DNA of 62,020 nt from Bacillales bacterium (lineage in GTDB: Bacteria; Bacillota_I; Bacilli_A; RFN20; CAG-826). The number at the start of each line of letters is the position of its first letter. The first letter of the stretch is position 1. The position numbers and the translations under genes are program-made. The stretch lies in contig JAQYER010000036.1 of NCBI GenBank assembly GCA_028723545.1, positions 1-62,020 of the forward strand, written 5' to 3'. The notes beneath the pieces are model-generated. The model was not told the origin of the DNA, ran no database searches, and saw only the letters and a program-made list of their open reading frames with translations. Below are positions 14,131-37,968 of this stretch, piece by piece.

Positions 14131-14131
14131 A

Positions 14132-16115: not shown

Positions 16116-16116
16116 A

Positions 16117-20015: not shown

Positions 20016-20037
20016 ATTACTAAAACATTTTAGTAAT
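20016..20037. promoter_or_regulatory. palindromic operator ATTACTAAAACATTTTAGTAAT (same core as 18083-18100)
   Basis: Perfect 10-nt arms with a 2-nt centre. The ACTAAAWC|RTTTTAGT core is shared with the locus A operator. It lies ~100 nt upstream of the 538-aa gene start. Confidence 0.5.
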
Positions 20038-20083: not shown

Positions 20084-21025
20084 TTACAATTTTATTGTTT
20101 CTAAAGGTTTGTTTTCTTTAATAAATTGTTCAACTTCTTCTTTGTGATGAAGAGATGGTATTGCCCCTTTAACTTGGACAGTTAATGCCCCCATTGCATT
20201 TCCATATTTAACAGCATCTTCAATTGAACATCCTTCGCTTAATGAATACGCAAAAGCGCCAATAAAGCTATCTCCTGCCGCAACAGTGTCAATCGCATCT
20301 ACATGATATGAAGATACAATTCTTGCTCCATTTTCATCAAAAATAAACGCTCCTTTTGAGCCTAGTGTTGTGACAACATGTTTAACACCTTTATCAAATA
20401 ACGCTTTTGCGGCGATTTTTATTTGATTGATATCAGATGTATCTAAATTAGAAATAAGCGCTAATTCGGTTTCATTTGGCATTAAATAATCTAAATTTTT
20501 CAATATATAATCAGGTAATTTAATAGCAGGGGCTGGATTTAAAATAACTTTGACATTATTTTGTTTACAATATTCAATGACTTTAAATGTTGTTTCGATA
20601 TCCATTTCTAATTGACAAATCACATAATCACTATCTTTTAAAACTGGTTTAACTTTTTCAAATTGTTCATCTAAAAATTCATGATTCGCGCATGGAATAA
20701 CACAGATTCTATTTTGACCATTTTTATTGATTTGGATTTGAGCTGTTCCAGTGCAATTTTTATCAGTTACAAAAACATTTGATACATCAATATTTTCTTT
20801 TTTAAATAAATCGATAAATTTTTGACCATTCGCATCATTTCCAACCATTCCAATCATTCTAACATCGGCGTTTTGTCTTGCTAAAGCAATGCATTGATTT
20901 GCGCCTTTACCGCCTAAAAAGATTTGTAATGATTTACCCACTACTGTTTCACCTGCTTCAGGATAACGATCCATTGAAGCAACATTATCGACCATAAATG
21001 ATCCAAATACTGTTATTTTCTTCAT
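20084..21025 (-). CDS. ribokinase-family (PfkB) sugar kinase; specificity not determinable (ribose or possibly D-arabinose)
   Basis: 313 aa with GGKGANQCIALA and DTVAAGDSFIGAF motifs and clear similarity to RbsK. It is the last gene of locus B. Confidence 0.75.
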   Translation of the reverse strand: MKKITVFGSFMVDNVASMDRYPEAGETVVGKSLQIFLGGKGANQCIALARQNADVRMIGMVGNDANGQKFIDLFKKENIDVSNVFVTDKNCTGTAQIQINKNGQNRICVIPCANHEFLDEQFEKVKPVLKDSDYVICQLEMDIETTFKVIEYCKQNNVKVILNPAPAIKLPDYILKNLDYLMPNETELALISNLDTSDINQIKIAAKALFDKGVKHVVTTLGSKGAFIFDENGARIVSSYHVDAIDTVAAGDSFIGAFAYSLSEGCSIEDAVKYGNAMGALTVQVKGAIPSLHHKEEVEQFIKENKPLETIKL

Positions 21026-21076
21026 AATATAACCCTAAAATTATAATAATATGTTAGTAAATAATTTTTGTTTCAA

Positions 21077-21679
21077 TTATTTATTGTTTTGTTGTTTTCT
21101 TAATGATTCACCTAACGCTCCATTAGGATGGAAATTATAAAAATCATCTTTGGTGAAATTGTTTGATTTAGATATTGCACACGCGATTGCGTCACCTAAC
21201 ACTAAACACATTGTCGAAGAATTAGTTGGAGCTAAATTTAAATGATCAGCTTCTTTTAATTTAGGATAAATAATTTTGTAGTCACATTCTAAAGCTAATT
21301 TTGAATTAGGATTTGATGTAAAAGCGATTGTGGCTGCTCCAATTTTTTTAATTGGTTCGAGGTTTTGTGTAACTTCTTTAGTTGTTCCACTATTAGACAT
21401 TAAAATGACAATATCTTTCTTTTCAATCATTCCTAAATCACCATGACAAGCTTCAGTTCCGTGAACAAAAAATGATGGCGTGCCAGTCGATGAAAATGTC
21501 GCAGCGAGTTTTTTACATACATGTCCTGATTTGCCAACTCCTAAAAAGATTATTTTTCCTTGGCAATTATTAATTAATTGACAAATATTCTCTAAATTAT
21601 CGTAATCGAGACTTCTTTCCATTTCCTCGATTGCGTTTCTTTCACTAATAATTGCTTCTTTAATTCCATCTTTAAACAT
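21077..21679 (-). CDS. single-domain (SIS only, no CBS pair) D-arabinose-5-phosphate isomerase, KdsD/GutQ/KpsF-like
   Basis: GVGKSGHVCKKLAATFSSTGTPSFFVHGTEACHGDLGMI..D.VILMSNSGTTKE follows the KdsD/GutQ SIS core almost residue for residue. About 200 aa. Start at ATG 21677-21679, preceded by a GAGGTGG SD. Confidence 0.75.
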   Translation of the reverse strand: MFKDGIKEAIISERNAIEEMERSLDYDNLENICQLINNCQGKIIFLGVGKSGHVCKKLAATFSSTGTPSFFVHGTEACHGDLGMIEKKDIVILMSNSGTTKEVTQNLEPIKKIGAATIAFTSNPNSKLALECDYKIIYPKLKEADHLNLAPTNSSTMCLVLGDAIACAISKSNNFTKDDFYNFHPNGALGESLRKQQNNK

Positions 21680-21692
21680 AAGACCACCTCTT

Positions 21693-22913
21693 TTATTTAA
21701 ATTCAATTTCGATTAATGAAGTGTTATATATTGGAGACCATTGAGATACTTGCATAAAGATCTTTTTTCCATCATATAACGACATCTTTGGATGAATAAA
21801 CCCGCCATAATGAGATACAACTTCATTATGGGTTAATACTTTAATTTTCTCATCAAAGGACGAAGTTAATTCATCACATAAATGAATATTTAATTGGTTT
21901 CCATCAATATTAGTAAGCATCCATTTATGCAAATATTTATTATACATTATTGATGGCTCTGATACATTTCCAATTAATAAATAATATGGTTTTAATTTAA
22001 TTCCTTCATTAAATTTAGCCCATTTATTTTTACCTACGCATAATTCATATTCATTTTTATTTTCAAATTGTTCTTTTTTAACGCGTAATAAAGATAAATT
22101 CCCAACTCTTCCACCAGGGATAGAAACAAAATAAATATGTTTATCATCAAATGGGTTTTCGAATGGAAATATTTGTCCAAAACGATTATCCTCTATTTCT
22201 TCAAAGTTCAATGAATCCACTTTGACAAAGTGCTCTAAATCATCTTTTTTGGCTTTATAGCATTGATTATTTGTTACATGCCATTTGCCAGCTTCACCCC
22301 AATATCGAACAGACATGATAAATATATATACATACCCATTTAAATATATTCCACCAGTTGGAATACAAGATACTTCTTTATTAAGAGATATATCTAAATT
22401 CTTTTCGTCATTTCGGTGATGTTTTCCTTGTCTTATTGGTTTAATGATTCCGTTTTCGTCAGTAATGATTTCATTGAATTTAAGACCATTAAGATATGAT
22501 TTTGTGTTACTTCTAGCAATAAAATTTGAATTCCATAACCCATCATTACAATCTATTCCAGAAAATGTATCTCCATATAAATAAATCATTGAATCGTTTA
22601 AATCAACTGGGATGCCAAGATCAGTCGCTCCCGCTTTCGCGTTCACTAGCAAATTACAATTAATAGAATCTCTTCCAGTAACAAAACCAATATTGTGTAC
22701 ATATTCAATTTTATCATCTAAAGAAAAACTTCCTTCAGGAGGTAAAGCAACATATAACACAACAACATTTGGTTCTTTTGTTTCGTATGAAAAAACGTGA
22801 TTTACTAAAGCTTTATTCGTTTTGACATATTTAATTTCGATTTCATATTCGTATAAACGTTTTTTTGCTTCTTCAAGCGAATTATATAAAACATTTGGAA
22901 CAGGTGTAATCAT
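21693..22913 (-). CDS. DUF4185 (GH183-like) protein, cytoplasmic, with PASTA-like N-terminal module
   Basis: No signal peptide. Motifs GATDLGIP..L.D..IYLYGDTFSG......LWNSNF.A, KIPTGGI..NG.VYIF.MS.RYWG..G.W.V and SIPGGR are shared with the 22979-24322 product. Confidence 0.6.
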   Translation of the reverse strand: MITPVPNVLYNSLEEAKKRLYEYEIEIKYVKTNKALVNHVFSYETKEPNVVVLYVALPPEGSFSLDDKIEYVHNIGFVTGRDSINCNLLVNAKAGATDLGIPVDLNDSMIYLYGDTFSGIDCNDGLWNSNFIARSNTKSYLNGLKFNEIITDENGIIKPIRQGKHHRNDEKNLDISLNKEVSCIPTGGIYLNGYVYIFIMSVRYWGEAGKWHVTNNQCYKAKKDDLEHFVKVDSLNFEEIEDNRFGQIFPFENPFDDKHIYFVSIPGGRVGNLSLLRVKKEQFENKNEYELCVGKNKWAKFNEGIKLKPYYLLIGNVSEPSIMYNKYLHKWMLTNIDGNQLNIHLCDELTSSFDEKIKVLTHNEVVSHYGGFIHPKMSLYDGKKIFMQVSQWSPIYNTSLIEIEFK

Positions 22914-22944
22914 ATTTACTCCTCTACAATTTGAAAATATAAAT

Positions 22945-22968
22945 TAGAGAGTGTGTCGCCACACCCTC
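22945..22968 (-). terminator. GC-containing hairpin between the two DUF4185 genes (partial terminator or attenuator)
   Basis: agag(a)gtgtg-tcgc-cacac(c)ctct, a 10-bp stem with one mismatch, followed by only a modest T-rich tail on the minus strand. Confidence 0.35.
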
Positions 22969-22978
22969 TAATATCATG

Positions 22979-24322
22979 TTATTTAAGTACAACTTCAACT
23001 AAATAAGTGTTATAAATCGGAGTCCATCTAGATAATTGAATATACATTCTTTGTCCATCACTATCCATGAACTTAGAGTGAACAAATCCCCCATATAATC
23101 CAGGGAAATCACTTGAACTAACGACTGGATAAGTTTCATTATATGGACCACAAACATTATCAGCTACTCCAAAGACAATATTTGATCCTTTTAATGTCGC
23201 GAATACATATTTATCTAAATATTCACTGTACACAATTGATGGTTCAGATACTCCAGGAGACATAATAAAATATGGATTATCATTTAATTTTTTCATTCCA
23301 TCATCACCTTTAGTCCAGGTGTTCTTGCTTGTTAAATATTCATATTCATCGCGATTTTCAAATTTGTCTTTATCGACTCTAAACATAACCGCTCCATTAT
23401 TTCTTCCACCAGGAATTGATGTGAAGTAGATATGTTCATTATCTTTTGGATCATTAAATGGATAAATTTGACCAGCATAATATAACTCATCTTCATTCCA
23501 TCTTAACGATTCGACATTTGACCATGATTTATAGGTTGAATCATCAGCTTTTAAACATTGGTTATAAGTGACTCTCCAGTCACCTCCAACTCCCCAATAA
23601 CGGATTGACATATAGAAAATATAAACATCATTTCCAATGCTAATTCCACCAGTAGGGATTTTTGTTACTTCGACTGATTTATCAGTTTCATTTCCGCCTT
23701 GATGCGCTCCTTGAGCAAATGGAAGAATCATTCCATTTGCATCGTTAGTTACTAATTCATCAAATTGTAATCCATCTGTTAAATCTTCATCACTAGTAAT
23801 TGCCATAAAGTTTGAATTCCAAAATCCAGACATCGGTGCACTTGAAAAAGTGTCACCATATAAAAGCATTGTTCTTCCATCTGGAAGTTCAAATGGAATT
23901 CCTAAATCAGTACCGCCTTGTCCAGCATTGGTACACAATTCCTCGTTAGTCGAATCTCGACCGGTAATTCTGTCTAATTCAGTAATGTAATTAACAATAT
24001 TACTATCGGATAACGCTATTGATTTATCTAAACGCGCTGCAACATTAACAGCGATTCTAGATCCTTTTTCAACAACATCCCCAACATTATTATTACGATA
24101 TCCTAAAATTCTTCCTTCAATTAACTCTGAAGTTTGAACTTCGATTGGGTCAATATAAATATTTGCACCAAGTAATAATTTTGCTTCACTAGTCGTTAAA
24201 TTGTGAATTTCAGGGAGTGTATATCCGTTTACAATAGTGACGGAGCTGGATTGGTTACATCCAGCTACGCCAAAACAAACTGAAGTCAATAACGCGCCGA
24301 TTAAATATAATTTATTTTTCAT
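22979..24322 (-). CDS. DUF4185 (GH183-like) lipoprotein with PASTA-like N-terminal module
   Basis: Lipobox VAGC. PASTA-like segment YTLPEIHNLTTSEAKLLLG...GRILGY....VGDVVEKGSRIAVNV, followed by GGTDLGIPFELPDGRTMLLYGDTFS...FWNSNFMA. Confidence 0.6.
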   Translation of the reverse strand: MKNKLYLIGALLTSVCFGVAGCNQSSSVTIVNGYTLPEIHNLTTSEAKLLLGANIYIDPIEVQTSELIEGRILGYRNNNVGDVVEKGSRIAVNVAARLDKSIALSDSNIVNYITELDRITGRDSTNEELCTNAGQGGTDLGIPFELPDGRTMLLYGDTFSSAPMSGFWNSNFMAITSDEDLTDGLQFDELVTNDANGMILPFAQGAHQGGNETDKSVEVTKIPTGGISIGNDVYIFYMSIRYWGVGGDWRVTYNQCLKADDSTYKSWSNVESLRWNEDELYYAGQIYPFNDPKDNEHIYFTSIPGGRNNGAVMFRVDKDKFENRDEYEYLTSKNTWTKGDDGMKKLNDNPYFIMSPGVSEPSIVYSEYLDKYVFATLKGSNIVFGVADNVCGPYNETYPVVSSSDFPGLYGGFVHSKFMDSDGQRMYIQLSRWTPIYNTYLVEVVLK

Positions 24323-24346
24323 ATATTTTGACGCTTTCTTATTTAA

Positions 24347-26833
24347 TTATTTTTCTTTTTTCTTAAATGCAACTAATGCAACACCTGCTAATGCAAGTCC
24401 AGAAATAATTGCACTTGTTGCGATAATTGAACCTTTGCAACCTTTTTTGGCAGGTTCATCAGCTTCTTTTTTAGCAACTGTAACAACGATTGATGCTTTA
24501 ACACCATTTTCAGCTGTAACAAAAATTTGAGCAGAACCTTCACCAACAGCAATAACTAAACCAGTAGATGATACAGTTGCAATATTTTCATTTGATGAAG
24601 ACCAAGTAAATGTTGTTTCATCATGGTCTTCTGGGTTAGCAACAAATGATAATTGTAATTCATCACCAATAAATAATTCTTGGTCACCTTGTTCAATTGA
24701 TAAACGTGTTACTGGATTAGCAATTGGAGTTTCACTTAATAAATGAATTTCAACATTATCAATATACACAATGTCTCCAATTGCGACTGGTGTTAATAAC
24801 CAACGTAATGAGTTCCATTGAATCTTATCTGAAGTAATTTCAAATGAGAATTCAACTCTAGTAAATCCATTTTCTAATGCTTGTGTTTTAACTCCATAAT
24901 GAAGTTTTTCAGCACCAGAAGTCATTGATGGAATTCCAGCGCGGAAATCAAGGAGATAATATTCAACGTTTGCACCACCAACAAGTGATGAGTCAGCAAC
25001 AGTGTAGCTTTCTGCTGCAGCAGATAATGTAGTCTTAACATCGTATCTAAATCTAACTAAATCACCAATTGTTAAATCATCTGGTGTCATTAAGAACATT
25101 GATGAATATGCTTTTGTATCAGTTTCATCAAATTTTCCGATAGCGGCAACTTTGTTACCATCTTCAAGTTGAATGATTCTTCCTGGGTTATCAAAATTAT
25201 CAACTGATCCCCATGCACCTTCTAATTGAGTATTTGATAATTTTGTTCCAGCTTCGAAAGCTTCAAAATCACCATTTACAACAAGGTTTTTATCTTCATA
25301 ATAATCGAATTCTGGATCATAGGCTGATTCAGCGATTGTTTTTAAACATAATTCAGTAATTTTTAATGAAGATGTTCCTGCGTTATGGAATTCAACTGCA
25401 GTAGCTCCTAAAACAGAAGAAATTCTTTGAACATCGACTTTAGTTACATCAATTGTAACATCTTTAATTGATGCGCCATCTTTAATGAATTTTGCTACTA
25501 ATGAAGCGCCTTCATTAACATCAGAAGTTTTAACAGTTAATTCATAATCAGAATTAGATAAATCTTCAATTAAAACACCATAATAACCATTTGATTCAAT
25601 AGTAACTGAACCTAAAGCTAATTTAGCGTTATTACCATATAAACCAGTTGAATCTGGTTCTTCAGTTAAAGATCCGCCAGGTAATCTATCAGCAATTGAA
25701 GTAAAGTCTCCGCATGTAAATAAATTATTTCCGCCTTCTTCTTTAATACTGAAGTTATCAAAATAAATATCTCCAGCATCAGTATTAGCCCATAATCCGA
25801 CAGAATCGAATGCAGCAACAGAAGTATATGTTGCTGTGACATGTTTCCATCCTCTTAAGCCATCAGTAATTGTGGTGTTATAATATGCGACATCGGCTTC
25901 ATTGAAGATATTTCCATCATGTGACCATTTGCCATTATCATAGAAGTGGAAGCCAATGTTATTTGTGCCATTTGGAGCGAAATAATCAAATTCAAATGTA
26001 TATGTTTTTCCACCTTCAATTCCACTAAGTAAATTAAAGCAATCTGGGAATCCACCTTTGCCTTTGTTGAATCTTAGAGCAACATTTGTTGAATCAGTTG
26101 GATCAAGAGTAAAGGCTTGATTATATCCTCCCCAGTCTCCCCATCCTTCAACTACGTCAGCGCTGAAAGCTAATTCTGGAACATAAATATCTTCCATGTA
26201 ATTTGAGAAATCACCGTTGACAAAATGGTTAACACCATCGCCAGAATCGCAAGTGAAATTATCAAAATAAATTGCTCCTGAAGCAGTATTAGCCCATAAG
26301 CCAATTGAATCAAATACACCAACAGAAGTGTATTTAAAATCAACATGTTTCCATCCGCTTGATTTATCACTAATAGTTGTTTGATAATATGCGACATCAC
26401 TTTCTTTGAAAATGTTTCCTTCATGTGACCAAGCACCATTATCATATAAGTGGAAGCCAATGTTATCAGTTTTAGATGTTAAATAATAATCAAATCCTAA
26501 TGTGTATTCTGTTCCAGCAGTAATGTCTGAAATAAGACCAAAACAGTCAGGGAATCCACCTGCTTGATATTTTAATACGACGTTAGTTGAATTGGTTGGA
26601 TCTTTGACGAAATATTCATCAAAATCACTCCAGTCTCCCCAGCCACGTGGAGCTTCACCAGTGATTTTAACTTCGCTTACTCCTCCACCACCTAAAGAGA
26701 ATGTTGCGTTTGGAATAACATTATCACCATAAAGAATATTGCCTGCAGCGTTAACACCAATAGGTGAACGACCAAATGAGGCAATAGATATGAATGCAAA
26801 AGTTCCAATCGCTAATGGTAATACTTTTTTCAT
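24347..26833 (-). CDS. 828-aa surface protein: signal peptide, tandem CBM4/9/22-like modules, Big_2 domain, C-terminal TM anchor
   Basis: Two clearly duplicated ~150-aa modules (GWGDW..(F/Y)...F..DPT.STNV.L...GGFPDCF.L.S.I..G..YT..FDY......NIGFH.YDNG.WSH.GNIF.E.DVAYY.TTI.D...GWKHV). Further NGDFE-type modules follow. Big_2-like FTWSSSNENIATVSSTGLVIAVGEGSAQIFV, and the protein ends ..IISGLALAGVALVAFKKKEK. Confidence 0.7.
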   Translation of the reverse strand: MKKVLPLAIGTFAFISIASFGRSPIGVNAAGNILYGDNVIPNATFSLGGGGVSEVKITGEAPRGWGDWSDFDEYFVKDPTNSTNVVLKYQAGGFPDCFGLISDITAGTEYTLGFDYYLTSKTDNIGFHLYDNGAWSHEGNIFKESDVAYYQTTISDKSSGWKHVDFKYTSVGVFDSIGLWANTASGAIYFDNFTCDSGDGVNHFVNGDFSNYMEDIYVPELAFSADVVEGWGDWGGYNQAFTLDPTDSTNVALRFNKGKGGFPDCFNLLSGIEGGKTYTFEFDYFAPNGTNNIGFHFYDNGKWSHDGNIFNEADVAYYNTTITDGLRGWKHVTATYTSVAAFDSVGLWANTDAGDIYFDNFSIKEEGGNNLFTCGDFTSIADRLPGGSLTEEPDSTGLYGNNAKLALGSVTIESNGYYGVLIEDLSNSDYELTVKTSDVNEGASLVAKFIKDGASIKDVTIDVTKVDVQRISSVLGATAVEFHNAGTSSLKITELCLKTIAESAYDPEFDYYEDKNLVVNGDFEAFEAGTKLSNTQLEGAWGSVDNFDNPGRIIQLEDGNKVAAIGKFDETDTKAYSSMFLMTPDDLTIGDLVRFRYDVKTTLSAAAESYTVADSSLVGGANVEYYLLDFRAGIPSMTSGAEKLHYGVKTQALENGFTRVEFSFEITSDKIQWNSLRWLLTPVAIGDIVYIDNVEIHLLSETPIANPVTRLSIEQGDQELFIGDELQLSFVANPEDHDETTFTWSSSNENIATVSSTGLVIAVGEGSAQIFVTAENGVKASIVVTVAKKEADEPAKKGCKGSIIATSAIISGLALAGVALVAFKKKEK

Positions 26834-26853
26834 AGTTTCCTCCTTTTAAAGTA

Positions 26854-27906
26854 TTATTTATTTTTAAGAGGCAATCTTTCTTTGACAGATAAGATATTCT
26901 CTTTAATACCAAATGGTTGTTTCATATACCAATACGCTGTTGAAGAATAATCATCAGTGCGATGATTATTATGTCCATGTTCAATCGTTACTTTAATGGA
27001 TTTTTTAAAAGTAATTGGATCTAATATGTGATATCGGTAATATGTAATTTTTCCTTTCCAGTTATCTTTTCCTGGAATAATTATTCCGTGATATGGAGCG
27101 TTATATTCTTGGTTAGGACACCATGCGCAATTAATATAATCTTCAGTGCCAGTACCATTAATTGTTGGTAATTTATCACCATCAATAAAAATCATATCGT
27201 CGCCTTCTCCAGGCCAATCCCAATCAGAAGTATCTAATTGGTTATCGATATTTAAATTGCATCCGCAATAATGGCCTTCGCCTTCAATATCTAAGATGAC
27301 ATAATTGTCTTTTCCATCGAGATTCTGGCCTGAAAATTCATAGTCGCGGAAATTATCAAATTCGCTTCTATCTTTTCCTTTAGGTGGATTTTCTCGATGC
27401 CATAAAGCATGGAAATAAGTAATATCTTCATCGAATGTTTTTAATTCATAATCGATGTAATAATAAAGCATTAATGTCGTATCGCATTCATTGATGATTT
27501 CAATTTTGGCGTGCTCTTTAAAAGGCATTGGCCACCAACAATTTAGTCCTCTTCCATCTTGTGGAGACATTTGTAATGGAGCGGAAACAAAATTGTGTGA
27601 TATTCCATGTCCCATTCCAAAGAAATCCCCTAATGGAGCGATTACACTTGGATAAGAATTGTTTTCCCAATACATTTTAATGACAATTTTACGGAAAGCA
27701 TTTTCTTCAATAATGTCTCCAAAATTCATTTGAGTCATCCAAATGTGTTCAATTAATCCTGAACCTTGGATATCAAAAATAACACGTGATTCACCTGGTT
27801 TAATATAAATGCGGTCATCATTTCCACCGCTTCTATCCCATGATGATTCTCTTCTTCTAATGCCTTTTTTTGGTAAATAAATTGTTGATAAGTCGTGTCC
27901 AATCAT
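26854..27906 (-). CDS. DUF2961 / GH172 family glycoside hydrolase, cytoplasmic
   Basis: RRESSWDRSGGNDDRIYIKPGESRVIFDIQGSGLIEHIWMT near the N-terminus and DDYSSTAYWY near the C-terminus are hallmark DUF2961 segments. No signal peptide. Confidence 0.75.
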   Translation of the reverse strand: MIGHDLSTIYLPKKGIRRRESSWDRSGGNDDRIYIKPGESRVIFDIQGSGLIEHIWMTQMNFGDIIEENAFRKIVIKMYWENNSYPSVIAPLGDFFGMGHGISHNFVSAPLQMSPQDGRGLNCWWPMPFKEHAKIEIINECDTTLMLYYYIDYELKTFDEDITYFHALWHRENPPKGKDRSEFDNFRDYEFSGQNLDGKDNYVILDIEGEGHYCGCNLNIDNQLDTSDWDWPGEGDDMIFIDGDKLPTINGTGTEDYINCAWCPNQEYNAPYHGIIIPGKDNWKGKITYYRYHILDPITFKKSIKVTIEHGHNNHRTDDYSSTAYWYMKQPFGIKENILSVKERLPLKNK

Positions 27907-27907
27907 A

Positions 27908-28795
27908 TTATTTTACTCCTGTTAACGCGATACCATCTTTTATATATCTTTGAACGATGCAGAAAATAATAACAGCAGGAATTAAAGCGATGAAAGACGC
28001 CGCTAAAACTGAGCCATATCCTTGTGTTGATGCATCGTTAAATAATTTATTAATTGTTGTCATTATTTGTGCTAAATATGCATGATCACTATCAATTGTT
28101 AATGTTGGCCATAAATATGAATTGAAATAGCCAATAAATGTTCCCGCTCCCATAATTACCATCGGAGTCGCACTACTAGGAAGATAAATACGGAAGAAAA
28201 TTGAAAACGAATTACATCCATCAACTCTTGCTGATTCATCATAATCTTTTGGGAATCCTAAATAAAATTGTCTAAAGAAGAAAATATTATATGCACTTGC
28301 GACACCTGGAATAATTAATACCCAAATTGTATTCATCATTCCTAAAGCAGAAACAACTGAAATCGATGTTAATAAAATCGTAATTCCTGGAATAAACATC
28401 GTCATTAATGTAATAATCCAAAATAGTTTTTTAGCTGGGAAATTTAATCTTGCAAAAGCATATCCTGCTAAAGAATTAACAAATAACGACATAATCGTTG
28501 AAATTGACGCGACAAGAAGAGTCATAAACAATGATTGGAAGAAATTAATTCCAATTGATGTATATTGTAAATAAGCAATTCTTGTAAAGTTATCTATAGT
28601 AGGATTTATTGGGAAAAGATGAAATTCAGTTGGGAATATTTCTTGTTTATTTTTAAACATACAGATAATTGTTAAAAACAAAGGAAGGAATAAACAAAAT
28701 AACACGACTGCAATAACGATATAACACATCACTAAAACAATTTTATTAGTGATTTCGCTTTTTCTAGATAATTTAGTTAAATCTTTTTTATCCAT
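27908..28795 (-). CDS. carbohydrate ABC permease (MalG-class)
   Basis: Six TM helices and EAA loop ESARVDGCNSFSIFFRIYLP. Confidence 0.85.
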   Translation of the reverse strand: MDKKDLTKLSRKSEITNKIVLVMCYIVIAVVLFCLFLPLFLTIICMFKNKQEIFPTEFHLFPINPTIDNFTRIAYLQYTSIGINFFQSLFMTLLVASISTIMSLFVNSLAGYAFARLNFPAKKLFWIITLMTMFIPGITILLTSISVVSALGMMNTIWVLIIPGVASAYNIFFFRQFYLGFPKDYDESARVDGCNSFSIFFRIYLPSSATPMVIMGAGTFIGYFNSYLWPTLTIDSDHAYLAQIMTTINKLFNDASTQGYGSVLAASFIALIPAVIIFCIVQRYIKDGIALTGVK

Positions 28796-29735
28796 GTTTT
28801 TTTACCCTCCTTTCATCTTTGTCTTTGCGATTTGTTAATGAGAAAACAATCGCATTAATTGCTCCAACAGAAAGCATAATTAAAATTGAAGCAGCAATAA
28901 TTTGACTTTCAGAAACATTACCATTGCTACGAAGATGGACCAAATACAATACTGGAGTCATCGTCATATTTAAAGGAAGACCATTAGTCATCATCATTGG
29001 GATTTCAAACATTTGTAAATTTCCAGTTACTAAAGTGACAATAATTAAGACAAAATAGTTTTTTAAACTAGGAAGGATAATTGAAAATAATTTTGTGAAA
29101 TAACCCGCTCCATCAACACTCGCAGCTTCTAAATAATCATTTGGTATATTAATTAATCCGCTATAGAACACTAATGTTGTATATCCCATTCCAACCCATA
29201 ATGTCGGAACAATAATACTAAGATATGCCCAAAATTTATCCATTTGGAACGATATTGGTTCACCATCAAATAAAGTAATTAACCCATTGATAAATCCACC
29301 ATTATAAGTCGTTAATAAGGTGAAAATACATCCAACAACAATTCCAGAAAACAAATAAGGTAAATAAATAATTACTCGAACAAAAACAGTAAATTTATTT
29401 CTAACTTTTACTAAAATTGAAGCAAAGATAAATGAACCAATAACTTGAAATGAGACGATGCATAACGCCATCAAAAGAACATTTCCAAGTGATTTAAGGA
29501 ATATTTCATTTTTTAATATTGCTTTATAATTTTCAAATCCAACAAAATATGAATCAACTGGCCCACTTTCGTAATAATAAAATGATCGCCAAATTGCCAT
29601 AACTAAAGGAACTAAAACAAAGATAGTAAGAAGAATGAAGGCTGGAGCAATACAAATTAATCCAGACACTTTTTCTTCAGTTGTCTTGTTTTTAGGCAAT
29701 ATTGAAAATTGTTTTTTCTTCTTTGCTTGTTCCAT
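28788..29735 (-). CDS. carbohydrate ABC permease (MalF/UgpA-class)
   Basis: Six TM helices and EAA loop EAASVDGAGYFTKLFSIILP. Confidence 0.85.
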   Translation of the reverse strand: MEQAKKKKQFSILPKNKTTEEKVSGLICIAPAFILLTIFVLVPLVMAIWRSFYYYESGPVDSYFVGFENYKAILKNEIFLKSLGNVLLMALCIVSFQVIGSFIFASILVKVRNKFTVFVRVIIYLPYLFSGIVVGCIFTLLTTYNGGFINGLITLFDGEPISFQMDKFWAYLSIIVPTLWVGMGYTTLVFYSGLINIPNDYLEAASVDGAGYFTKLFSIILPSLKNYFVLIIVTLVTGNLQMFEIPMMMTNGLPLNMTMTPVLYLVHLRSNGNVSESQIIAASILIMLSVGAINAIVFSLTNRKDKDERRVKKHG

Positions 29736-29737
29736 TT

Positions 29738-31096
29738 TTATGATCGAGGATTTGTTCCTGCTATATTCCTTGATGTAATGATATTTTTAATTGCTGTATC
29801 GCATTTATTAACAGCAGATGGAATATCATTTCCCATTGCAGCTTCTTCTAATAATCCTTCAACAGCGACGGAAATATCCCATTCATAAATTGGTTCAAGA
29901 ATAGCTCTTGTGGCAACATAATTAATTGTTTCAATCCATGAAGTTGGAACAACATCTTGTGTTTTATAAGATTCGTCTAAAATAGCTTGAATTGATTTTC
30001 TTGTTGGGAATTTTGAATAATGAGCTTTTTGGAAATAAGAAGTTGGTACTTCTTCATTTTCCATAACTAAATATTTTAAAACTTCAACCGCTTTTTCAAC
30101 GTTTTTGCATTCGCTTGAAATAACATAACACCATCCACCATTAGTGGCAGTAACACAATCTTGTTCTCCACTGACTGTTGGCATAACAGCAAAACCAATC
30201 TTATCTACTAAATCAGGATATGTATTAATAATTGAAGCAGCTGACCAGCTACCACAAGTTGTCATAACTGATTTACCATCACATAAATCAAAGGAGGATT
30301 CAGTATAATTGCCAGCTGATAATGGTACATATCCATTACCATATAAATCTCTAAATACTTCTGCTAATTTAGTGTATCCTGGTTCAGCAATACGAGAAGT
30401 TGACCAATCATCAGTAATCGCTAATCCACCTGTCGCAGCGTGTTGCATTCCCCATGATCCCCACGCAAGTGCGACACCAGTAGGTACTCCAAATGGATAA
30501 ACATTTTTCTTTCCGGCTGAACGAAGTCCAGCTTTGACATCTCCACATAATGATAATAATCCATCCCATGTTGTTGGAATTTCATAATTAGGAGCGTATT
30601 GTTCTAATAAATCTTTACGATATGCAAGTAAAGTTGATGGCTCCATAACAATTGGAGCGGCATAATATTTGTTTCCATATTTAACTGCTTCTGTCGCAGT
30701 ATCGGTTAAATCACTCCATGTTTCATTAGAAAAATATGATGTGATATCAATTGCTCTACCAGTATTGATTTCTTTATATAAATTTCCATATGAAACCATA
30801 TAAATATCAGGAACATTATTTGATGCATATGCCGAACGAATTAAGTCATCAAATGCGTTTGTGTCAATATAAGTTTGTTTTAATTGAATACCATCATTTA
30901 AATTTGAGTTGAAAGATTTTCTTTGAGAAATATTAATTTGGTTTTCCCATTCTTCAAAATCCATGAGCCACATACTAATTTCTGTCGCTCCATCTTCAAA
31001 TTTTTCTTCTTCACCAATAATAATGTCTGATGGAGGAGTGCATGATGTTAATGCAAATAAAGTTGTTAAAGTTAATAAAGGTATAATTTTCTTCAT
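29738..31096 (-). CDS. ABC extracellular sugar-binding lipoprotein (family-1 SBP)
   Basis: 452 aa, lipobox LTSC, immediately upstream of the permease pair. Confidence 0.85.
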   Translation of the reverse strand: MKKIIPLLTLTTLFALTSCTPPSDIIIGEEEKFEDGATEISMWLMDFEEWENQINISQRKSFNSNLNDGIQLKQTYIDTNAFDDLIRSAYASNNVPDIYMVSYGNLYKEINTGRAIDITSYFSNETWSDLTDTATEAVKYGNKYYAAPIVMEPSTLLAYRKDLLEQYAPNYEIPTTWDGLLSLCGDVKAGLRSAGKKNVYPFGVPTGVALAWGSWGMQHAATGGLAITDDWSTSRIAEPGYTKLAEVFRDLYGNGYVPLSAGNYTESSFDLCDGKSVMTTCGSWSAASIINTYPDLVDKIGFAVMPTVSGEQDCVTATNGGWCYVISSECKNVEKAVEVLKYLVMENEEVPTSYFQKAHYSKFPTRKSIQAILDESYKTQDVVPTSWIETINYVATRAILEPIYEWDISVAVEGLLEEAAMGNDIPSAVNKCDTAIKNIITSRNIAGTNPRS

Positions 31097-31173
31097 TTAA
31101 CGAAACCTCCTTGTTTATGATTTCATTTTATCTAAGGAAAGAGTTGTAATATATACATTTTTAATGTGTTTTA

Positions 31174-31190
31174 ATAACAAAAATTTGGTA
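31174..31190. promoter_or_regulatory. ATAACAAAAATTTGGTA motif upstream of the locus B SBP gene (candidate AraC-regulator site)
   Basis: The same motif, with one extra T and in inverse orientation, occurs at 33612-33629 upstream of the ATPase-AraC genes. A related perfect palindrome AATAACAAATTTGTTATT is at 31243-31260. Confidence 0.35.
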
Positions 31191-31203
31191 TTAGCAAAAC
31201 TCT

Positions 31204-31230
31204 AAAAAAATATACTACTAAAGTAGTATA
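31204..31230 (-). terminator. rho-independent terminator after the AraC regulator gene
   Basis: On the minus strand, stem tatactac/gtagtata with loop ttta (31211-31230), followed by TTTTTTT (complement of 31204-31210). Confidence 0.55.
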
Positions 31231-31277
31231 CATTTTGAATTTAATAACAAATTTGTTATTTTTTTGTCAAATATTGC

Positions 31278-32126
31278 TTATTTTTTGTATTGAGTTGGGT
31301 ATTTTCCGGTCATTTTTTTAAACCAACGAGAAAATGTTTGTGGATCATTAAACGACAAAAGTGCAGAAATTTCCTTAACTGACTTAAATGAATGAGTAAT
31401 TAAATTCTTCGCATAACGAATTCTTAATGAATCATAATATTTCTTTGGAGTGGTATTATAAGCCTTCTTAAAAATTTCATTTAATGACCAGCTAGATAAA
31501 TTCGCTTTCATCATGAAATCTTCCATCGATAAATTATTTTGAACATTTTCACCCATATATGTTGTTAATAATGACAAAGTATCTTTTTGTTCATTATCTT
31601 CATAATATCCAACGCTTTCTGCAACAATTAAGCCGATTAAATATTTTAATAATCCTTCCATTTCCAATTCTCTTGTTGGGCTTTTTAAAGAATAGACATT
31701 AATTAAATCAAGAAGTGTATTTCGGATAACACTAGGCGTTTTACAATGAATGACATAAGGCATATTAATTTTATTTTGTTCCCAATAATTTGGTCTAAAA
31801 TATTCTTCATTTAATTGTTCTTTTCGATGCATTGAAACTGGAATGATTGAACTAAATTCATCTTTGTCAAAATCAAAATGAACATGAGGTTGACAACAAT
31901 TTTCTTCATACCATGTAATTTTATGATAAACATTAGGTGGAATAATTGCGACATCACCTTCTTTTAAAATGTAAGTTTTCCCGTCAATAAAAAGAGATAA
32001 TTTACCTTTATCAATATAAATAATTTCGTTATCATAAATACTTCGATCAGCGACATAATCATAAAGCCAAGTGTGATACATCGCTAAACGGATATAAGGA
32101 TGAAATGGTTTTAATTTAACATTCAT
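31278..32126 (-). CDS. AraC-family transcriptional regulator (cupin sensor plus dual HTH)
   Basis: 282 aa with an N-terminal cupin-like fold (GDVAIIPPNVYH) and C-terminal AraC HTH signatures (..FSRWFKKMTGKYPTQY). Confidence 0.85.
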   Translation of the reverse strand: MNVKLKPFHPYIRLAMYHTWLYDYVADRSIYDNEIIYIDKGKLSLFIDGKTYILKEGDVAIIPPNVYHKITWYEENCCQPHVHFDFDKDEFSSIIPVSMHRKEQLNEEYFRPNYWEQNKINMPYVIHCKTPSVIRNTLLDLINVYSLKSPTRELEMEGLLKYLIGLIVAESVGYYEDNEQKDTLSLLTTYMGENVQNNLSMEDFMMKANLSSWSLNEIFKKAYNTTPKKYYDSLRIRYAKNLITHSFKSVKEISALLSFNDPQTFSRWFKKMTGKYPTQYKK

Positions 32127-32128
32127 AA

Positions 32129-33430
32129 TTAAATAATTGTAATACTAGTTTTTTCATCAAATAAATGGATTTTGCTTTCACTTATTTCAAAATACATTAT
32201 TTGTCCTTCATCAATTAATTGTTCACTGCTAACTTTTGAAAGAACATCATTTCCACCATAATTGAAATGAACATAAAATTCATCACCTAATAATTCAGAT
32301 AATGTTACTTCAATTTTGATCGCTTTTTTATTTGATTTAGTTGTTTGAATAATATGCTCAGGACGAATTCCAAATGTAATAGGATGTTTTTTATTTATGC
32401 ATATATCTTCATAATATTGAATTAATTGCTTTTTATATTCGACTTCTTTGTCGGTTGATTCATCATAAGGAACGGCTTTTTTATTTTTTTCATTGAGGAA
32501 ATTGTATTCTTGTTTTCTTTTATCAATGAATTGTTCTAATCCTAATTTTTCTTTATTGTATTGATTTTGATAAAATTCATCGTGTTTCTTAATTAATTCA
32601 TTTGATAACTTAATATGTTCTCCATTAATAAATTCAATACGTCCATTATCATAATTTCCCGCGATGAAATTCATTGCTGGAGAGCCGATGAATGATGCGA
32701 CAAATTTATTAGCAGGATGACGATATATTTCAATTGGAGTATCAATTTGTTGAGTAATACCATCTTTCATAACAACAATGCGGTCCGCCATAGTCATAGC
32801 TTCAACTTGGTCATGAGTAACATAAATCGTTGTCGCGTTAATTTTATGATGAAGTCTAGTAATTTCGCTTCTCATTTGAACACGTAATTTTGCATCCAAA
32901 TTTGACAACGGTTCATCCATTAAAAATAATCTTGCATCACGGACAATTGCTCTACCTAATGCGACACGTTGACGTTGCCCGCCTGATAAAGCTTTAGGTT
33001 TACGATTTAATAAATCAGAAATCTCTAATATTTCCGCGGCTTTCTTGACTCTTTCAGCAATTTCTTTTTTATCAAAATGTCTGACTTTTAATCCAAAGCC
33101 AATGTTTTCAGCAACAGTCATATTAGGATAAAGCGCATAACTTTGGAATACCATCGCAATATCGCGGTCTTTTGGAGATAATTTATTTGAATACACTCCA
33201 TCGATATATAAGTCACCACTTGATATTTCTTCAAGTCCCGCGATCATTCTTAAGGTTGTTGATTTGCCACATCCAGATGGTCCAACAAAAACAATGAATT
33301 CATGCTTCTTAATATCGAGATTAAAATCGGTGACAGCATGCACTGTTTTGTTATAGAACTTGTTAACGTGTTTTAAGCTAACAAATTGTTCATCATTATT
33401 AGTTACTTCTTTTTCGATTGTTTCATTCAT
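32129..33430 (-). CDS. MsmK/MalK-type sugar ABC ATPase (locus B)
   Basis: Walker [18 protein letters not shown], Walker B FLMDEPLS. Start taken at ATG 33428-33430 (MNETIEKE...); the 24-codon hydrophobic extension in the ORF track is rejected. Confidence 0.9.
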
Positions 33431-33611
33431 ACGCTTTTCCGCCTTTATATAATTATTGTAAAACACAATTTTTATCATTTGAGAAACATAAAAATTATAC
33501 ATAAATATTTTATGTAATATTTTTTTGTTCTTTTTTTAAATATATAAATATATTTATCTGATTTATAAATATAAGAGAAAAATTAATAAAAAAATATTGA
33601 AATAACAAGTC

Positions 33612-34617: not shown

Positions 34618-34631
34618 AATTTCTCTTTTCT

Positions 34632-34664
34632 AAAAGCCGAGAAAGGTAGTCTTATCTCGGCTTT
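34632..34664 (-). terminator. hairpin terminator after the 640-aa surface protein gene
   Basis: Perfect 10-bp stem aaagccgaga/tctcggcttt (34633-34642 and 34655-34664). The minus-strand tail is only UUUU, so read-through into the fructokinase gene is plausible. Confidence 0.5.
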
Positions 34665-34682
34665 GTTCGCTAAATAAGTCTA

Positions 34683-36605: not shown

Positions 36606-36638
36606 ACATACTCCTTTCTATTTGCAAAACAAGATGTT

Positions 36639-37898: not shown

Positions 37899-37900
37899 GT

Positions 37901-37915: not shown

Positions 37916-37968
37916 TTTTTTCGATATGATAATTATAATATAATAATATTATATTTTAAAGTGGTTTT

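Follow-up and report, generated by a model that had tools for sequence, protein, structure and literature searches.

Results

The window, i.e. the whole analysed stretch of 62,020 nucleotides with a GC content of about 30%, carries between positions 20084 and 33430 eleven open reading frames, all of which are located on the minus strand. Domains were assigned with Pfam and NCBIfam profiles on mechanically called open reading frames, whose true starts may differ for the ATPase and the SIS isomerase. As TGA was never read through in the minus-strand frames that were checked (0 of 42), the standard code 11 applies. An earlier, sequence-only reading had proposed a co-directional set of eleven genes in this interval, and all genes were found at the proposed coordinates and with the proposed domains.

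A locus-dedicated ABC ATPase of the MsmK/UgpC type is encoded at 32129..33430 (NCBIfam NF008653, 467.7 bits at a cut-off of 432). Its mechanical frame spans 32129-33502, and the ATG at 33430, which has the ribosome binding site AAAGGCGGA 8 nt upstream, is the probable start, matching the end coordinate of the sequence-only reading. The ATPase gene overlaps by 4 nt with the start of an AraC-family regulator gene (31278..32126), whose product combines a cupin sensor with an HTH_18 DNA-binding domain (Pfam HTH_18 5e-19, Cupin_2 2e-08, AraC_binding 3e-07). The AraC gene opens the locus in every full-length relative, and the orthologous ATPase is located at the 3′ end of the locus in the relatives. 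Upstream of the binding-protein gene, a conserved CAAATTTTTGTTAT box (31168..31188, minus strand) overlaps the −35 region of the transporter/enzyme operon, while a related palindrome, AATAACAAATTTGTTATT, is located at 31243-31260. Since 9-mers of the CAAATTTTTGTTAT box were found in 10 of 14 AraC-SBP spacers taken from different genomes and a variant box, CAAATAAnTGTTAAGT, in more distant loci, it is regarded as a putative AraC operator. The importer itself comprises a substrate-binding lipoprotein (29738..31096; SBP_bac_8 4.5e-26, SBP_bac_1 4e-20; lipobox LTSC with Cys19; ribosome binding site AAGGAGG) and two permeases, one UgpA/MalF-like (28788..29735; BPD_transp_1 2.4e-11, NCBIfam UgpA 4.5e-24) and one UgpE/MalG-like (27908..28795; BPD_transp_1 2.7e-14, NCBIfam UgpE 1.6e-33).

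The gene at 26854..27906 encodes a GH172 protein (Pfam DUF2961, 8.3e-85), in which no signal peptide was found and which is predicted to be a cytoplasmic exo-α-D-arabinofuranosidase. PDB matches were αFFase1 (7v1v) and 4kq7 (2.9e-78), Dg79 (8ah3, 3.8e-71) and 8ic8 (2.2e-33). In αFFase1 numbering the protein keeps E270 (GEGDD), E291-D292 (TGTEDY), W267, W298 and Y187, with E270 and E291 corresponding to the catalytic Glu pair known from the literature (PMC8605356, PMC10115798). It lacks both the αFFase1 insertion 62-98 and Lys147 and is collinear with Dg79 and BACUNI_00161. Sequence identities range from 40 to 44%, with the highest value for αFFase1 (43.5%) and 40% for Dg79; because the protein is thus equidistant from a fructofuranosidase and an arabinofuranosidase, its specificity is not fixed by sequence alone.

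Two GH183 (DUF4185) proteins are encoded in tandem. The product of 22979..24322 (DUF4185 4e-56) is a surface lipoprotein (lipobox VAGC, Cys22) with an N-terminal PASTA-like domain and a predicted endo-α-D-arabinanase. It matches EndoMA1 (PDB 8hhv, 2.9e-32) over the whole catalytic domain and conserves D33 (TDLG), D51 (GDTF), E243 (SEPS), R198 and Y293; the roles of D33, D51 and E243 in GH183 were established by mutagenesis (PMC10509167). For the N-terminal domain, 20 of the 52 aligning homologues match Pfam PASTA (best 3.7e-07), and the window's own N-terminal segment alone gave no Pfam PASTA match. The second GH183 protein (21693..22913; DUF4185 4.4e-48), in which no signal peptide was found, is predicted to hydrolyse arabino-oligosaccharides in the cytoplasm. 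With its lipoprotein paralogue it shares 42% identity, and it matches EndoMA1 with 1.8e-13, again with D33, D51 and E243 conserved; the 12 other loci whose DUF4185 best matches the second paralogue contain orthologues of about 404-412 aa. To our knowledge, no endo-arabinanase working in the cytoplasm has been characterised, which speaks against the D-arabinan reading discussed below. In the gap between the GH183 genes a strong stem-loop of 13 bp (22943..22972, minus strand, −19.8 kcal/mol) is followed by a U-rich tract; it is specific to the window, since the relatives have just 2-20 bp between their GH183 genes. The stem-loop may act as a partial terminator or processing site, and the three genes behind it may thus be uncoupled from the preceding part of the operon, a further point against this reading.

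The 828 aa product of 24347..26833, a predicted surface glycan-capture protein, yielded Big_2 as its sole Pfam match and no CBM domain by Pfam. It is composed of a signal peptide, four β-sandwich modules (A1, ~31-205; A2, 205-378; B, 379-502; C, 503-702), the Big_2 domain (708-780), a C-terminal membrane helix and a KKKEK tail; hhalign showed homology between modules A and C (96.5%, E 8e-10). The full-length AF2 model gave a mean pLDDT of 76.7, and module C modelled alone gave a pLDDT of 94.5 and a pTM of 0.90. Foldseek matched module C to CBM4-2 (E 3e-07, TMt 0.63), to EndoMA1 (8ic1, E 2e-05) and to CBM22, CBM16 and CBM61. At the fold level the models support a protein built of CBM4-like β-sandwich modules, so that the previously proposed CBM-rich surface protein, though invisible to Pfam, could be upheld. 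The C-terminal domain of EndoMA1 binds D-arabinan and D-arabinotetraose (PMC10509167). The surface protein occupies the equivalent position in all relatives, and its family is narrow, comprising 24 representative clusters among 1.84 billion proteins.

The gene at 21077..21706 (SIS 1.2e-27) encodes a predicted D-arabinose-5-phosphate isomerase consisting of a single SIS domain without CBS domains, in line with NCBIfam matches to KdsD (9e-57) and KpsF/GutQ (2e-55) over the N-terminal SIS part only. PDB matches were 5uqi (1.8e-58), the KdsD SIS domain 2xhz (5.4e-42) and 3etn (2.9e-32), and residues aligned to K59, H88, E111 and E152 of KdsD are present together with the HPxGALG histidine. The mechanical frame begins with the TTG at 21706; with the ATG at 21679 as start, the protein would have 200 aa, the typical length of the orthologues.

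The ribokinase-family kinase (20084..21025; PfkB 1e-65; TIGR02152 343.5 bits, cut-off 299.65) is a predicted D-arabinose 5-kinase. It keeps D16, G42, K43, N46, E143 and D255 and clusters with the kinases of the related loci, apart from canonical RbsKs and from the window's own paralogue at 3881-4762, which retains Asn14. At the position of this residue, a ribose ligand in E. coli RbsK, the window kinase has Met and 13 of 13 orthologues have Val, Met or Ile, so that all 14 locus kinases carry a hydrophobic residue there. Salmonella DeoK presumably carries Met at this position as well. A98 is exchanged for Gly in 12 of the 13 orthologues, which therefore naturally carry the Gly98 of the engineered E. 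coli ribokinase A98G, whose kcat on D-arabinose is increased 15-fold (PMC9604405). The window kinase itself retains Ala98 and passes the NCBIfam ribokinase cut-off, two observations that speak against the D-arabinan reading discussed below. The transcription unit probably ends after the kinase gene, at an AT-rich hairpin followed by a T-rich tract (20016..20037, minus strand). A separate promoter-like site and ribosome binding site precede the gene that comes next (18299-19915); its product has a homologue in the downstream locus and is missing from all related loci.

The neighbourhood comparison revealed that the gene order AraC-SBP-permease-permease-GH172-surface protein-GH183(x1-3)-SIS-PfkB(-ATPase) is shared by 19 loci representing at least 14 other genomes, which belong to uncultured Bacilli, Mollicutes, Acholeplasmatales and Izemoplasma. 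As this order recurs across genomes, the eleven-gene arrangement is not due to chance. In two of the loci, L005 and L019, the SIS/PfkB pair is swapped in place for an L-fucose/D-arabinose isomerase (1031 and 1024 bits, cut-off 775) and a ribulokinase (643 and 634 bits, cut-off 428), and no aldolase was found in either locus. D-arabinose is the sugar that both catabolic modules can turn into D-ribulose-5-phosphate, and the isomerase/ribulokinase pair is the module known from described D-arabinan loci.

Discussion

We read the region, with a probability of roughly 70%, as an AraC-controlled locus for α-D-arabinofuranan utilisation, whose predicted activities would be directed at the D-arabinan of Mycobacteriales arabinogalactan and LAM or at a similar D-Araf glycan. 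In the proposed mechanism the membrane-anchored protein with its four CBM4-like modules would hold the polymer on the cell surface, where the PASTA-like/GH183 lipoprotein would make endo-cuts. The resulting oligosaccharides would enter via the lipoprotein binding protein and the two-permease ABC importer, energised by the dedicated MsmK-type ATPase, and would then be trimmed by the cytoplasmic second GH183 enzyme, while the GH172 exo-α-D-arabinofuranosidase would free D-arabinose. Phosphorylation at C5 by the ribokinase-derived kinase and conversion of D-arabinose-5-phosphate to D-ribulose-5-phosphate by the single-domain isomerase would finally feed the pentose-phosphate pathway.

The D-arabinan interpretation of the sequence-only reading is supported in all its checkable elements, to which comparative evidence has now been added. 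DUF2961 was assigned to the product of 26854-27906 and DUF4185 to those of 21693-22913 and 22979-24322, as had been expected, and among solved structures GH172 enzymes and the GH183 endo-α-D-arabinanase EndoMA1 come closest, with the catalytic residues conserved. Signal peptides, lipoboxes and signal-less enzymes agree with the suggested surface-to-cytoplasm layout. The term "complete route", however, is too strong: no GH116 exo-β-D-arabinofuranosidase, an enzyme present in known D-arabinan loci (PMC10509167), was found in the window, and β-capped arabinogalactan/LAM termini would not be cleared by known means. The suggested kinase-then-isomerase step is backed by the non-orthologous displacement in two relatives and by the kinase specificity signature. 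Both the names of the relatives and the anchoring by membrane instead of LPXTG are compatible with a wall-less lineage.

The cluster of Microbacterium arabinogalactanolyticum contains the GH183 enzymes EndoMA1 and EndoMA2, ExoMA1 (GH172), ExoMA2 (GH116), an ABC transporter, an isomerase and a kinase (PMC10509167). Its architecture is matched by the window with regard to extracellular GH183 endo-enzymes, an ABC oligosaccharide importer, a signal-less intracellular GH172 and catabolic genes leading to D-ribulose-5-phosphate. A CBM4-like β-sandwich for arabinan binding is also shared, for which the window has a separate protein. In contrast to this actinomycetotal cluster, the locus of the window belongs to Bacillota (Bacilli/Mollicutes-type), its enzymes are lipoprotein- or membrane-anchored instead of freely secreted, its GH183 has a PASTA-like domain at the N-terminus in place of a CBM at the C-terminus, and an extra cytoplasmic GH183, a dedicated ATPase and an AraC regulator are present only here. 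Furthermore, kinase and A5P isomerase stand in place of isomerase and kinase. PUL42 of Dysgonomonas gadei, with DgGH4185a/b, three GH172 enzymes, a GH116 candidate and a fucose isomerase (PMC10115798, bioRxiv 10.64898/2026.08.13.744632), shares the core pair of GH183 and GH172, and the window GH172 is collinear with its selective exo-α-1,5-D-Araf-ase Dg79 at 40% identity. Uptake there proceeds via an outer-membrane SusC/SusD system instead of an ABC importer, and its three GH172 enzymes differ in linkage preference, whereas the window has one. When D. gadei uses D-arabinan, the fucose isomerase is its most abundant carbohydrate-active protein (PMC10115798); L005 and L019 possess this type of catabolic module, from which most loci of the window family differ.

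In the established D-arabinose catabolism of enterobacteria, L-fucose isomerase acts together with the D-ribulokinase DarK (mentioned in bioRxiv 10.1101/2025.02.06.636802). The end product D-ribulose-5-phosphate is common to this route, whose module is carried by L005 and L019, and to that of the window, in which phosphorylation to D-arabinose-5-phosphate would precede isomerisation. No description of kinase-then-isomerase D-arabinose catabolism as a natural route was found in the literature searched. The window isomerase shares the lone SIS domain of about 200 aa with 5uqi, 3etn and the SIS domain of KdsD (2xhz), but its gene belongs to an operon for glycan catabolism in a lineage derived from Gram-positives, and the predicted direction of its reaction is from A5P to Ru5P. 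Its partner kinase has the PfkB fold, catalytic Asp255, the GGKGAN motif and the anion hole in common with E. coli RbsK and the deoxyribokinase DeoK.

The other substrate considered in the sequence-only reading was difructose dianhydride or another α-D-fructofuranoside, given the fructan locus next to it. On such substrates (difructose dianhydride I, caramel sugars) the GH172 protein would act like αFFase1 in cooperation with the GH32 fructan locus. In favour of this, αFFase1 is the joint best PDB match and the most identical one, a GH32 locus begins 200 bp upstream in the window, and in Bifidobacterium dentium the αFFase1 gene, encoding a DFA I synthase/hydrolase, adjoins an ABC transporter and GH32 (PMC8605356). 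The cytoplasmic GH172 beside an ABC importer, the catalytic Glu pair and the aromatics of the −1 subsite are common to both clusters, and αFFase1 hydrolyses pNP-α-D-Araf too (PMC8605356). Nevertheless, this explanation is disfavoured and appears very improbable to us. The insertion bearing Glu85 and the Lys147, which form the fructose +1 subsite of αFFase1, are both missing from the window protein, and Dg79, with which it is collinear as it is with BACUNI_00161, is inactive on DFA I (bioRxiv 10.64898/2026.08.13.744632). The two GH183 genes, the A5P isomerase and the pentose kinase, all absent from the B. dentium cluster, would be without a role in fructose metabolism; the fructan locus carries its own fructokinase and ATPase; and GH32 genes adjoin the locus in none of the relatives. 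The fucose isomerase and ribulokinase of L005 and L019 likewise argue against a fructofuranoside.

We attach hardly any weight to the view that the last two or three genes lie outside the glycan pathway, the kinase being an ordinary ribokinase for the nucleoside-hydrolase/ABC locus downstream and the SIS protein a biosynthetic enzyme. The kinase does score above the ribokinase equivalog cut-off, and a terminator-like hairpin stands before these genes. However, the relatives keep SIS and PfkB behind the GH183 genes whatever flanks them, with the isomerase/ribulokinase module at this very place in L005 and L019, Asn14 is lost in all locus kinases, and a separate ribokinase paralogue with the canonical Asn14 belongs to the downstream locus. 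Kdo synthesis, the usual biosynthetic role of such isomerases, is not expected in Bacilli. A different furanosidic target, such as a D-Araf capsule, O-antigen or pilin glycan or the substrate of a GH183 clade with a new specificity, is rather unlikely but deserves more attention: the GH183 proteins are distant from the characterised enzymes (2.9e-32 and 1.8e-13 to EndoMA1), the missing GH116 and the narrow surface-protein family point in this direction, and α-D-Araf is likewise a constituent of the pilins of Pseudomonas and the O-antigen of Stenotrophomonas (PMC8605356). Against it, every GH183 enzyme described in the GH183/DUF4185 literature covered is an endo-D-arabinanase, the catabolic modules indicate D-arabinose as the freed sugar, and the PASTA-like domain suits a peptidoglycan-linked target. 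If the glycan contains α-D-Araf, this explanation merges with the D-arabinofuranan locus favoured here.

An α-D-arabinofuranan locus in the window would place the degradation of D-arabinan, an unusual cell-wall polymer of mycobacteria and corynebacteria, in a low-GC, Mollicutes-like gut bacterium, and its order of kinase before isomerase would be the reverse of the isomerase-then-kinase order of known D-arabinan loci.

Results

Organisation of the locus

The window has a G+C content of about 30% throughout and carries nearly every gene on the minus strand. From 33502 down to 20084, eleven successive minus-strand open reading frames follow each other with short or overlapping junctions. By Pfam and NCBIfam they start with an MsmK/UgpC-type ABC ATPase (32129-33502), an AraC regulator (31278-32126), a sugar-binding protein with a lipobox (29738-31096) and two permeases (28788-29735 and 27908-28795). 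These are followed by a DUF2961/GH172 protein (26854-27906, Pfam 8e-85), a surface protein of 828 aa in which Big_2 is the sole recognised domain (24347-26833), a DUF4185/GH183 lipoprotein with a lipobox (22979-24322, 4e-56), a second DUF4185/GH183 paralogue (21693-22913, 4e-48), a SIS protein of about 200 aa matching only the SIS half of KdsD (21077-21706, 9e-57) and a PfkB kinase scoring above the ribokinase equivalog cut-off (20084-21025). All eleven co-directional genes claimed by the sequence-only reading were thus found on the minus strand, and their domain types agree with it. Its upper boundary at 33430 is likely the true start of the ATPase gene, since a ribosome-binding site precedes the ATG there. 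TAA is the stop codon of 39 of the 42 minus-strand reading frames checked, and TGA interrupts none of them, indicating that the standard code is used.

The localisation which had been predicted also held: a lipobox is present on the binding protein and on one GH183, and GH172 and the other GH183 lack a signal sequence. On this predicted localisation, the scheme of a D-arabinan locus, namely an extracellular endo-enzyme, an oligosaccharide importer and an intracellular exo-alpha enzyme, appears to be present in the window.

In 10 of 14 genomes a CAAATTTTTGTTAT box precedes the binding-protein gene (intergenic region between the AraC and binding-protein genes, related loci L001-L019). The copy in the window lies at 31168-31188, and the box is plausibly the operator of the AraC regulator. 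More distant loci carry the variant CAAATAAnTGTTAAGT, and a palindromic copy, AATAACAAATTTGTTATT, was also found in the window (31243-31260). Between the two GH183 genes, a GC-containing hairpin of 13 bp with a U-rich tail (22943-22972, minus strand, -19.8 kcal/mol) may act as an internal terminator or attenuator; it is lineage-specific, as only 2-20 bp separate these genes in relatives. An AT-rich hairpin lies 3' of the kinase gene. Neither an Rfam match nor a tRNA gene was found when the window was scanned.

Conservation in related genomes

The gene neighbourhood was compared with 19 related loci from at least 14 genomes, mapped with phmmer. According to their record titles these are human-gut assemblies (Hadza, UMGS), other MAGs from uncultured Bacilli, Mollicutes and Bacillota, and one from a Candidatus Izemoplasma. 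The conservation which the sequence-only reading had left to be checked was evident in a constant gene order, in which AraC is followed by the binding protein, the two permeases, GH172, the Big_2 surface protein, between one and three GH183, SIS and PfkB, usually together with the ATPase. The ATPase gene stands at the 5' end in the window and at the 3' end in the relatives, so that, judged from gene order, it has moved in the window lineage. Flanking genes vary with every lineage and include GH32 in none. The best matches are two short, near-identical contigs, P0001 (99%) and L020 (about 95%). Beyond the 19 loci, the same gene arrangement is present on a contig whose surface-protein copy is 95% identical.

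A rearranged locus was observed in GCA_053528235.1 (L007, 1-8926), whose GH172 is distant from that of the window (138 bits) and adjoins a 734-aa DUF6259 protein. This protein could be a candidate for a missing beta-D-arabinofuranosidase, or unrelated. When considered as a GH116-like enzyme it gave no PDB sequence match and no other Pfam family, and it was counted neither way.

The GH183 pair and GH172

The family assignments proposed for the three glycosidase genes were confirmed by HMM. DUF4185 was assigned to the products of both 22979-24322 and 21693-22913 (190.9 and 164.5 bits against a Pfam gathering threshold of 39.5), and DUF2961/GH172 to that of 26854-27906 (284.5 bits against 27). 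A comparison with solved GH172 and GH183 enzymes had likewise been suggested, and the sequences align to them with conserved catalytic residues. The lipoprotein GH183 aligns over the entire catalytic domain with EndoMA1, the solved endo-alpha-D-arabinanase of Microbacterium arabinogalactanolyticum (2.9e-32), and the match of the signal-less paralogue is weaker (1.8e-13). Asp33 (TDLG), Asp51 (GDTF) and Glu243 (SEPS; EndoMA1 numbering) are aligned and kept in both paralogues. Mutagenesis has established that these three residues are essential, Asp33 being the nucleophile and Asp51 the acid/base (PMC10509167; PMC10115798). On these alignments both GH183 proteins of the window are predicted endo-alpha-D-arabinanases. 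Homologues of the lipoprotein are plentiful in metagenomes, the named ones belonging to Firmicutes, Bacilli, Tenericutes, Acholeplasmatales and Izemoplasmatales MAGs. We know of no characterised precedent for a cytoplasmic GH183.

Members of this GH183 clade carry an N-terminal domain of about 90 aa, which is matched by Pfam PASTA (PF03793) in 20 of 52 aligned members (best 3.7e-07). The N-terminal segments of the two window proteins alone gave no Pfam PASTA match, though they can be aligned with the matching members. PASTA domains are known sensors of peptidoglycan or muropeptides. Since arabinogalactan is covalently bound to peptidoglycan, it is an attractive idea that the PASTA-like domain could serve as a targeting module. 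The domain is kept even in the signal-less, presumably cytoplasmic GH183, which is odd for a domain targeting the cell wall.

In GH172 the catalytic Glu pair and the adjacent Asp are conserved (GEGDD and TGTEDY, corresponding to E270/E291 of alphaFFase1, the fructofuranosidase of Bifidobacterium dentium, and E233/E254 of DgGH172c), as are the -1 subsite aromatics W267, W298 and Y187 of alphaFFase1. The identity amounts to 40-44%, equally to alphaFFase1, BACUNI_00161 and Dg79, a GH172 of Dysgonomonas gadei. The latter is a selective exo-alpha-1,5-D-arabinofuranosidase which does not turn over difructose dianhydride (DFA) I (bioRxiv 10.64898/2026.08.13.744632). The architecture of the window enzyme is of the Dg79 type, lacking both the Glu85-bearing insertion and Lys147 of alphaFFase1, two residues assigned to the fructose +1 subsite (PMC8605356). 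GH172 by itself leaves the substrate undecided, and it is the genomic context only that favours D-Araf over D-Fruf.

The surface protein

The surface protein, whose place in the locus is the same in every relative, consists of a signal peptide, the modules A (duplicated in the window), B and C, Big_2 and a membrane anchor. At its C-terminus a membrane helix is followed by a basic tail; an LPXTG motif is absent. Modules A and C are homologous to each other (hhalign 96.5%). The modules gave no Pfam match at E up to 1, and PDB sequences were likewise not matched by the family profiles of A and C (E up to 10). In an exhaustive HMMER search of 1.84 billion proteins the family proved narrow, with 24 representative clusters.

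An AlphaFold model of the full-length protein returned multi-domain structural matches of low TM only, and module C was therefore predicted alone (pLDDT 94.5, pTM 0.90). Its best structural match is CBM4-2 (E 3.4e-07, TMt 0.63), followed by CBM22, CBM16 and CBM61, with EndoMA1 at rank 7. The C-terminal domain of EndoMA1 is CBM4-2-like and holds D-arabinotetraose in the crystal structure (PMC10509167). These fold matches, taken together with the arabinan-binding domain of EndoMA1, support the earlier description of the protein as CBM-rich at the level of the fold, a beta-sandwich matching solved CBMs, but not as membership of a CAZy or Pfam CBM family by sequence. From the model we infer that the surface protein binds glycans.

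Kinase, isomerase and the released sugar

The locus kinase scores 343.5 bits against the ribokinase equivalog TIGR02152 (cut-off 299.65). Aligned with the ribokinases of E. coli, V. cholerae and S. aureus it keeps D16, G42, K43, N46, E143 and D255, and the full ribose-ligand set (N14, D16, G42, K43, N46, E143 and D255; PMC9604405) is incomplete by the missing N14. This residue is replaced by Met in the window kinase and by Val, Met or Ile in 13 of 13 orthologous locus kinases. We take Met10 of DeoK to be a parallel to the replacing residue. When E. coli was selected to grow on 2-deoxyribose, substitutions arose at Asn14 (PMC6452873). At the position of Ala98, 12 of the 13 orthologous kinases have Gly and one has Ser, Ala being retained in the window kinase; the engineered A98G exchange in E. 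coli ribokinase raised kcat for D-arabinose 15-fold by relieving the clash with the arabino 2-OH (PMC9604405). In the ribokinase paralogue of the window (3881-4762, nucleoside-hydrolase locus), which serves as an internal control, the canonical GSLNMD motif is intact. Neighbour-joining places the window kinase among the locus kinases, apart from its own paralogue and the canonical RbsKs.

The SIS protein finds its best matches in the single-domain phosphosugar isomerase 5uqi (1.8e-58), presumably c3406 of E. coli CFT073, and in the SIS domain of KdsD. In alignments to 2xhz and 5uqi the motifs GVGKSGH, HGDLG, TKE, KEAD and HPNGALG are present, and residues of the SIS protein align to K59, H88, E111, E152 and H193 of KdsD, which we take to be its active-site residues. 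Of the 328 positions of the KdsD model the protein (209 aa) covers only 6-202, and it has no canonical tandem C-terminal CBS domains. By its sequence it is a single-domain D-arabinose-5-phosphate (A5P) isomerase subtype, like 5uqi and 3etn.

In two related loci, L005 ('Tenericutes bacterium') and L019 (Candidatus Izemoplasma), SIS and PfkB are missing and an L-fucose isomerase and a ribulokinase occupy the same position (L005 11368-14783; L019 9365-12807). Both enzymes score above their equivalog cut-offs, and no aldolase lies alongside. These loci have a single GH183 of the lipoprotein type, the cytoplasmic paralogue being absent. L-fucose isomerase also isomerises D-arabinose, and D-arabinose is the one sugar which both modules could bring to D-ribulose-5-phosphate (Ru5P), so that the displacement points to D-arabinose. 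In D. gadei grown on D-arabinan, fucose isomerase was the carbohydrate-active protein of top abundance (PMC10115798). As read from the gene content, we consider the non-orthologous displacement to be the strongest evidence, for the substrate as well as for the kinase-then-isomerase step which the sequence-only reading had put at the end of the route. The predicted order would be D-arabinose to A5P by the ribokinase-derived kinase and A5P to Ru5P by the single-domain A5P isomerase. No description of this natural catabolic route was found in the literature searched. The same two enzyme types have been combined in synthetic cascades.

Neighbouring loci

The region forms an island densely packed with genes for carbohydrate utilisation. 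Each of three adjacent ABC sugar loci has an MsmK-like ATPase of its own (16117-18069, 32129-33502 and 50626-51864), with scores of 386 and 337 bits between closest copies; many Firmicutes share one such ATPase among their sugar loci. A third sugar locus downstream (10512-18069, probably also 1270-10493) comprises an MsmK-type ATPase of unusual length (650 aa), a LacI regulator, a binding protein of 590 aa with two permeases, an inosine-uridine nucleoside-hydrolase-family protein and then an 848-aa protein (7947-10493), a pair of roughly 400-aa proteins, one of which gave a faint GH43-like match, and the canonical ribokinase paralogue. This locus may serve the utilisation of nucleosides or ribofuranosides.

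The gene for a 538-aa protein (18299-19915) was rejected as a member of the locus under study: it is absent from every related locus, has its own promoter-like site and ribosome-binding site, and its product is homologous to the 848-aa protein (6e-103), neither having a Pfam family. The protein has a signal peptide, a C-terminal membrane helix and a KTKKEK tail.

On the other side, a fructan locus (33700-51864) contains three GH32 proteins (1164, 828 and 419 aa) along with a LacI regulator, an ABC importer, a fructokinase and an ATPase of its own, and also two large proteins without a recognisable family (827 aa, 37969-40452; 640 aa, 34683-36605). The rest of the window (57866-59971 and 52115-54692) includes a GH36 alpha-galactosidase (Melibiase 2.5e-128), a GFO/IDH/MocA oxidoreductase fragment, a FakA/DegV fatty-acid kinase pair, a Fic protein and a PAP2 phosphatase.

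Discussion

The system of the window is best read as a new variant of the known D-arabinan utilisation loci, in a new phylum. Loci of the Microbacterium / D. gadei type are marked by a GH116 subfamily-4 exo-beta-D-arabinofuranosidase, which the window locus lacks, and a D-arabinose isomerase with a (ribulo)kinase in place of the PfkB kinase and A5P isomerase; this canonical pair of known D-arabinan loci is the one found in L005 and L019 at the same position. New are the lipoprotein and membrane-anchored design, a fusion of GH183 with a PASTA-like domain, CBM-like modules on a capture protein of their own and the reversed catabolic module, with the kinase first and then the isomerase. The sequence-only reading knew of no such system in Bacillota or Mollicutes-type organisms. 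Neither Firmicutes nor Bacillota is mentioned in the two founding papers (PMC10509167 and PMC10115798), and among the top-ranked matches of a literature search no paper combines D-arabinan with Mollicutes-type taxa.

The route had been called complete. Candidates for its extracellular endo, importer and intracellular exo-alpha parts were found, but none for the beta-enzyme. A Pfam scan of the 44 reading frames of at least 150 aa in the window yielded no GH116, no homologue of the DUF6259 protein of L007 is present in the window, and neither the window nor the mapped genes of syntenic relatives contain a GH116 or other candidate exo-beta-D-arabinofuranosidase. The beta-capped termini of arabinogalactan and lipoarabinomannan (LAM) would withstand the known activities.

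A different D-Araf-containing or unknown glycan is a possible target. A locus serving DFA or other fructofuranosides is disfavoured: the similarity of GH172 and the neighbouring GH32 locus are the sole bases of such a reading, yet the GH32 locus owns an ATPase and a fructokinase, and its adjacency is not conserved in relatives. A reading in which the terminal genes of the locus belong to another pathway is contradicted by their universal linkage to the GH genes in relatives.

To our knowledge, D-arabinan-degrading enzymes were first identified in 2023, in Bacteroidota and Actinomycetota only. With D-arabinan as the favoured substrate, reduced-genome, possibly wall-less Bacilli of gut and sediment (Mollicutes-type, Acholeplasmatales, Izemoplasma) could be specialised scavengers or predators of Mycobacteriales cell walls by means of a GH183 with a PASTA-like domain, CBM-like capture modules and a kinase-first D-arabinose route, to which we give a probability of roughly 0.4. 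This reading takes the three components to be without described counterparts, the PASTA-like domain as possibly peptidoglycan-recognising and the CBM-like modules as a new D-arabinan-binding family.

If the locus works as predicted, the divergent GH183 and GH172, the candidate new family of D-arabinan-binding modules and the binding protein would be new reagents for LAM and arabinogalactan analysis, of value for tuberculosis diagnostics and cell-wall research, and the kinase would be a natural D-arabinose kinase for the enzymatic synthesis of arabinoside drugs, in which the engineered E. coli ribokinase is currently the limiting enzyme. It would also mean a new natural D-arabinose pathway and a physiological role for single-domain A5P isomerases in organisms without Kdo synthesis. 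An entire uncultured, genome-reduced clade of gut, rumen and sediment Bacilli would then feed on the mycobacterial or corynebacterial cell wall, an unexpected niche, and D-arabinan would be a handle to enrich or culture them.
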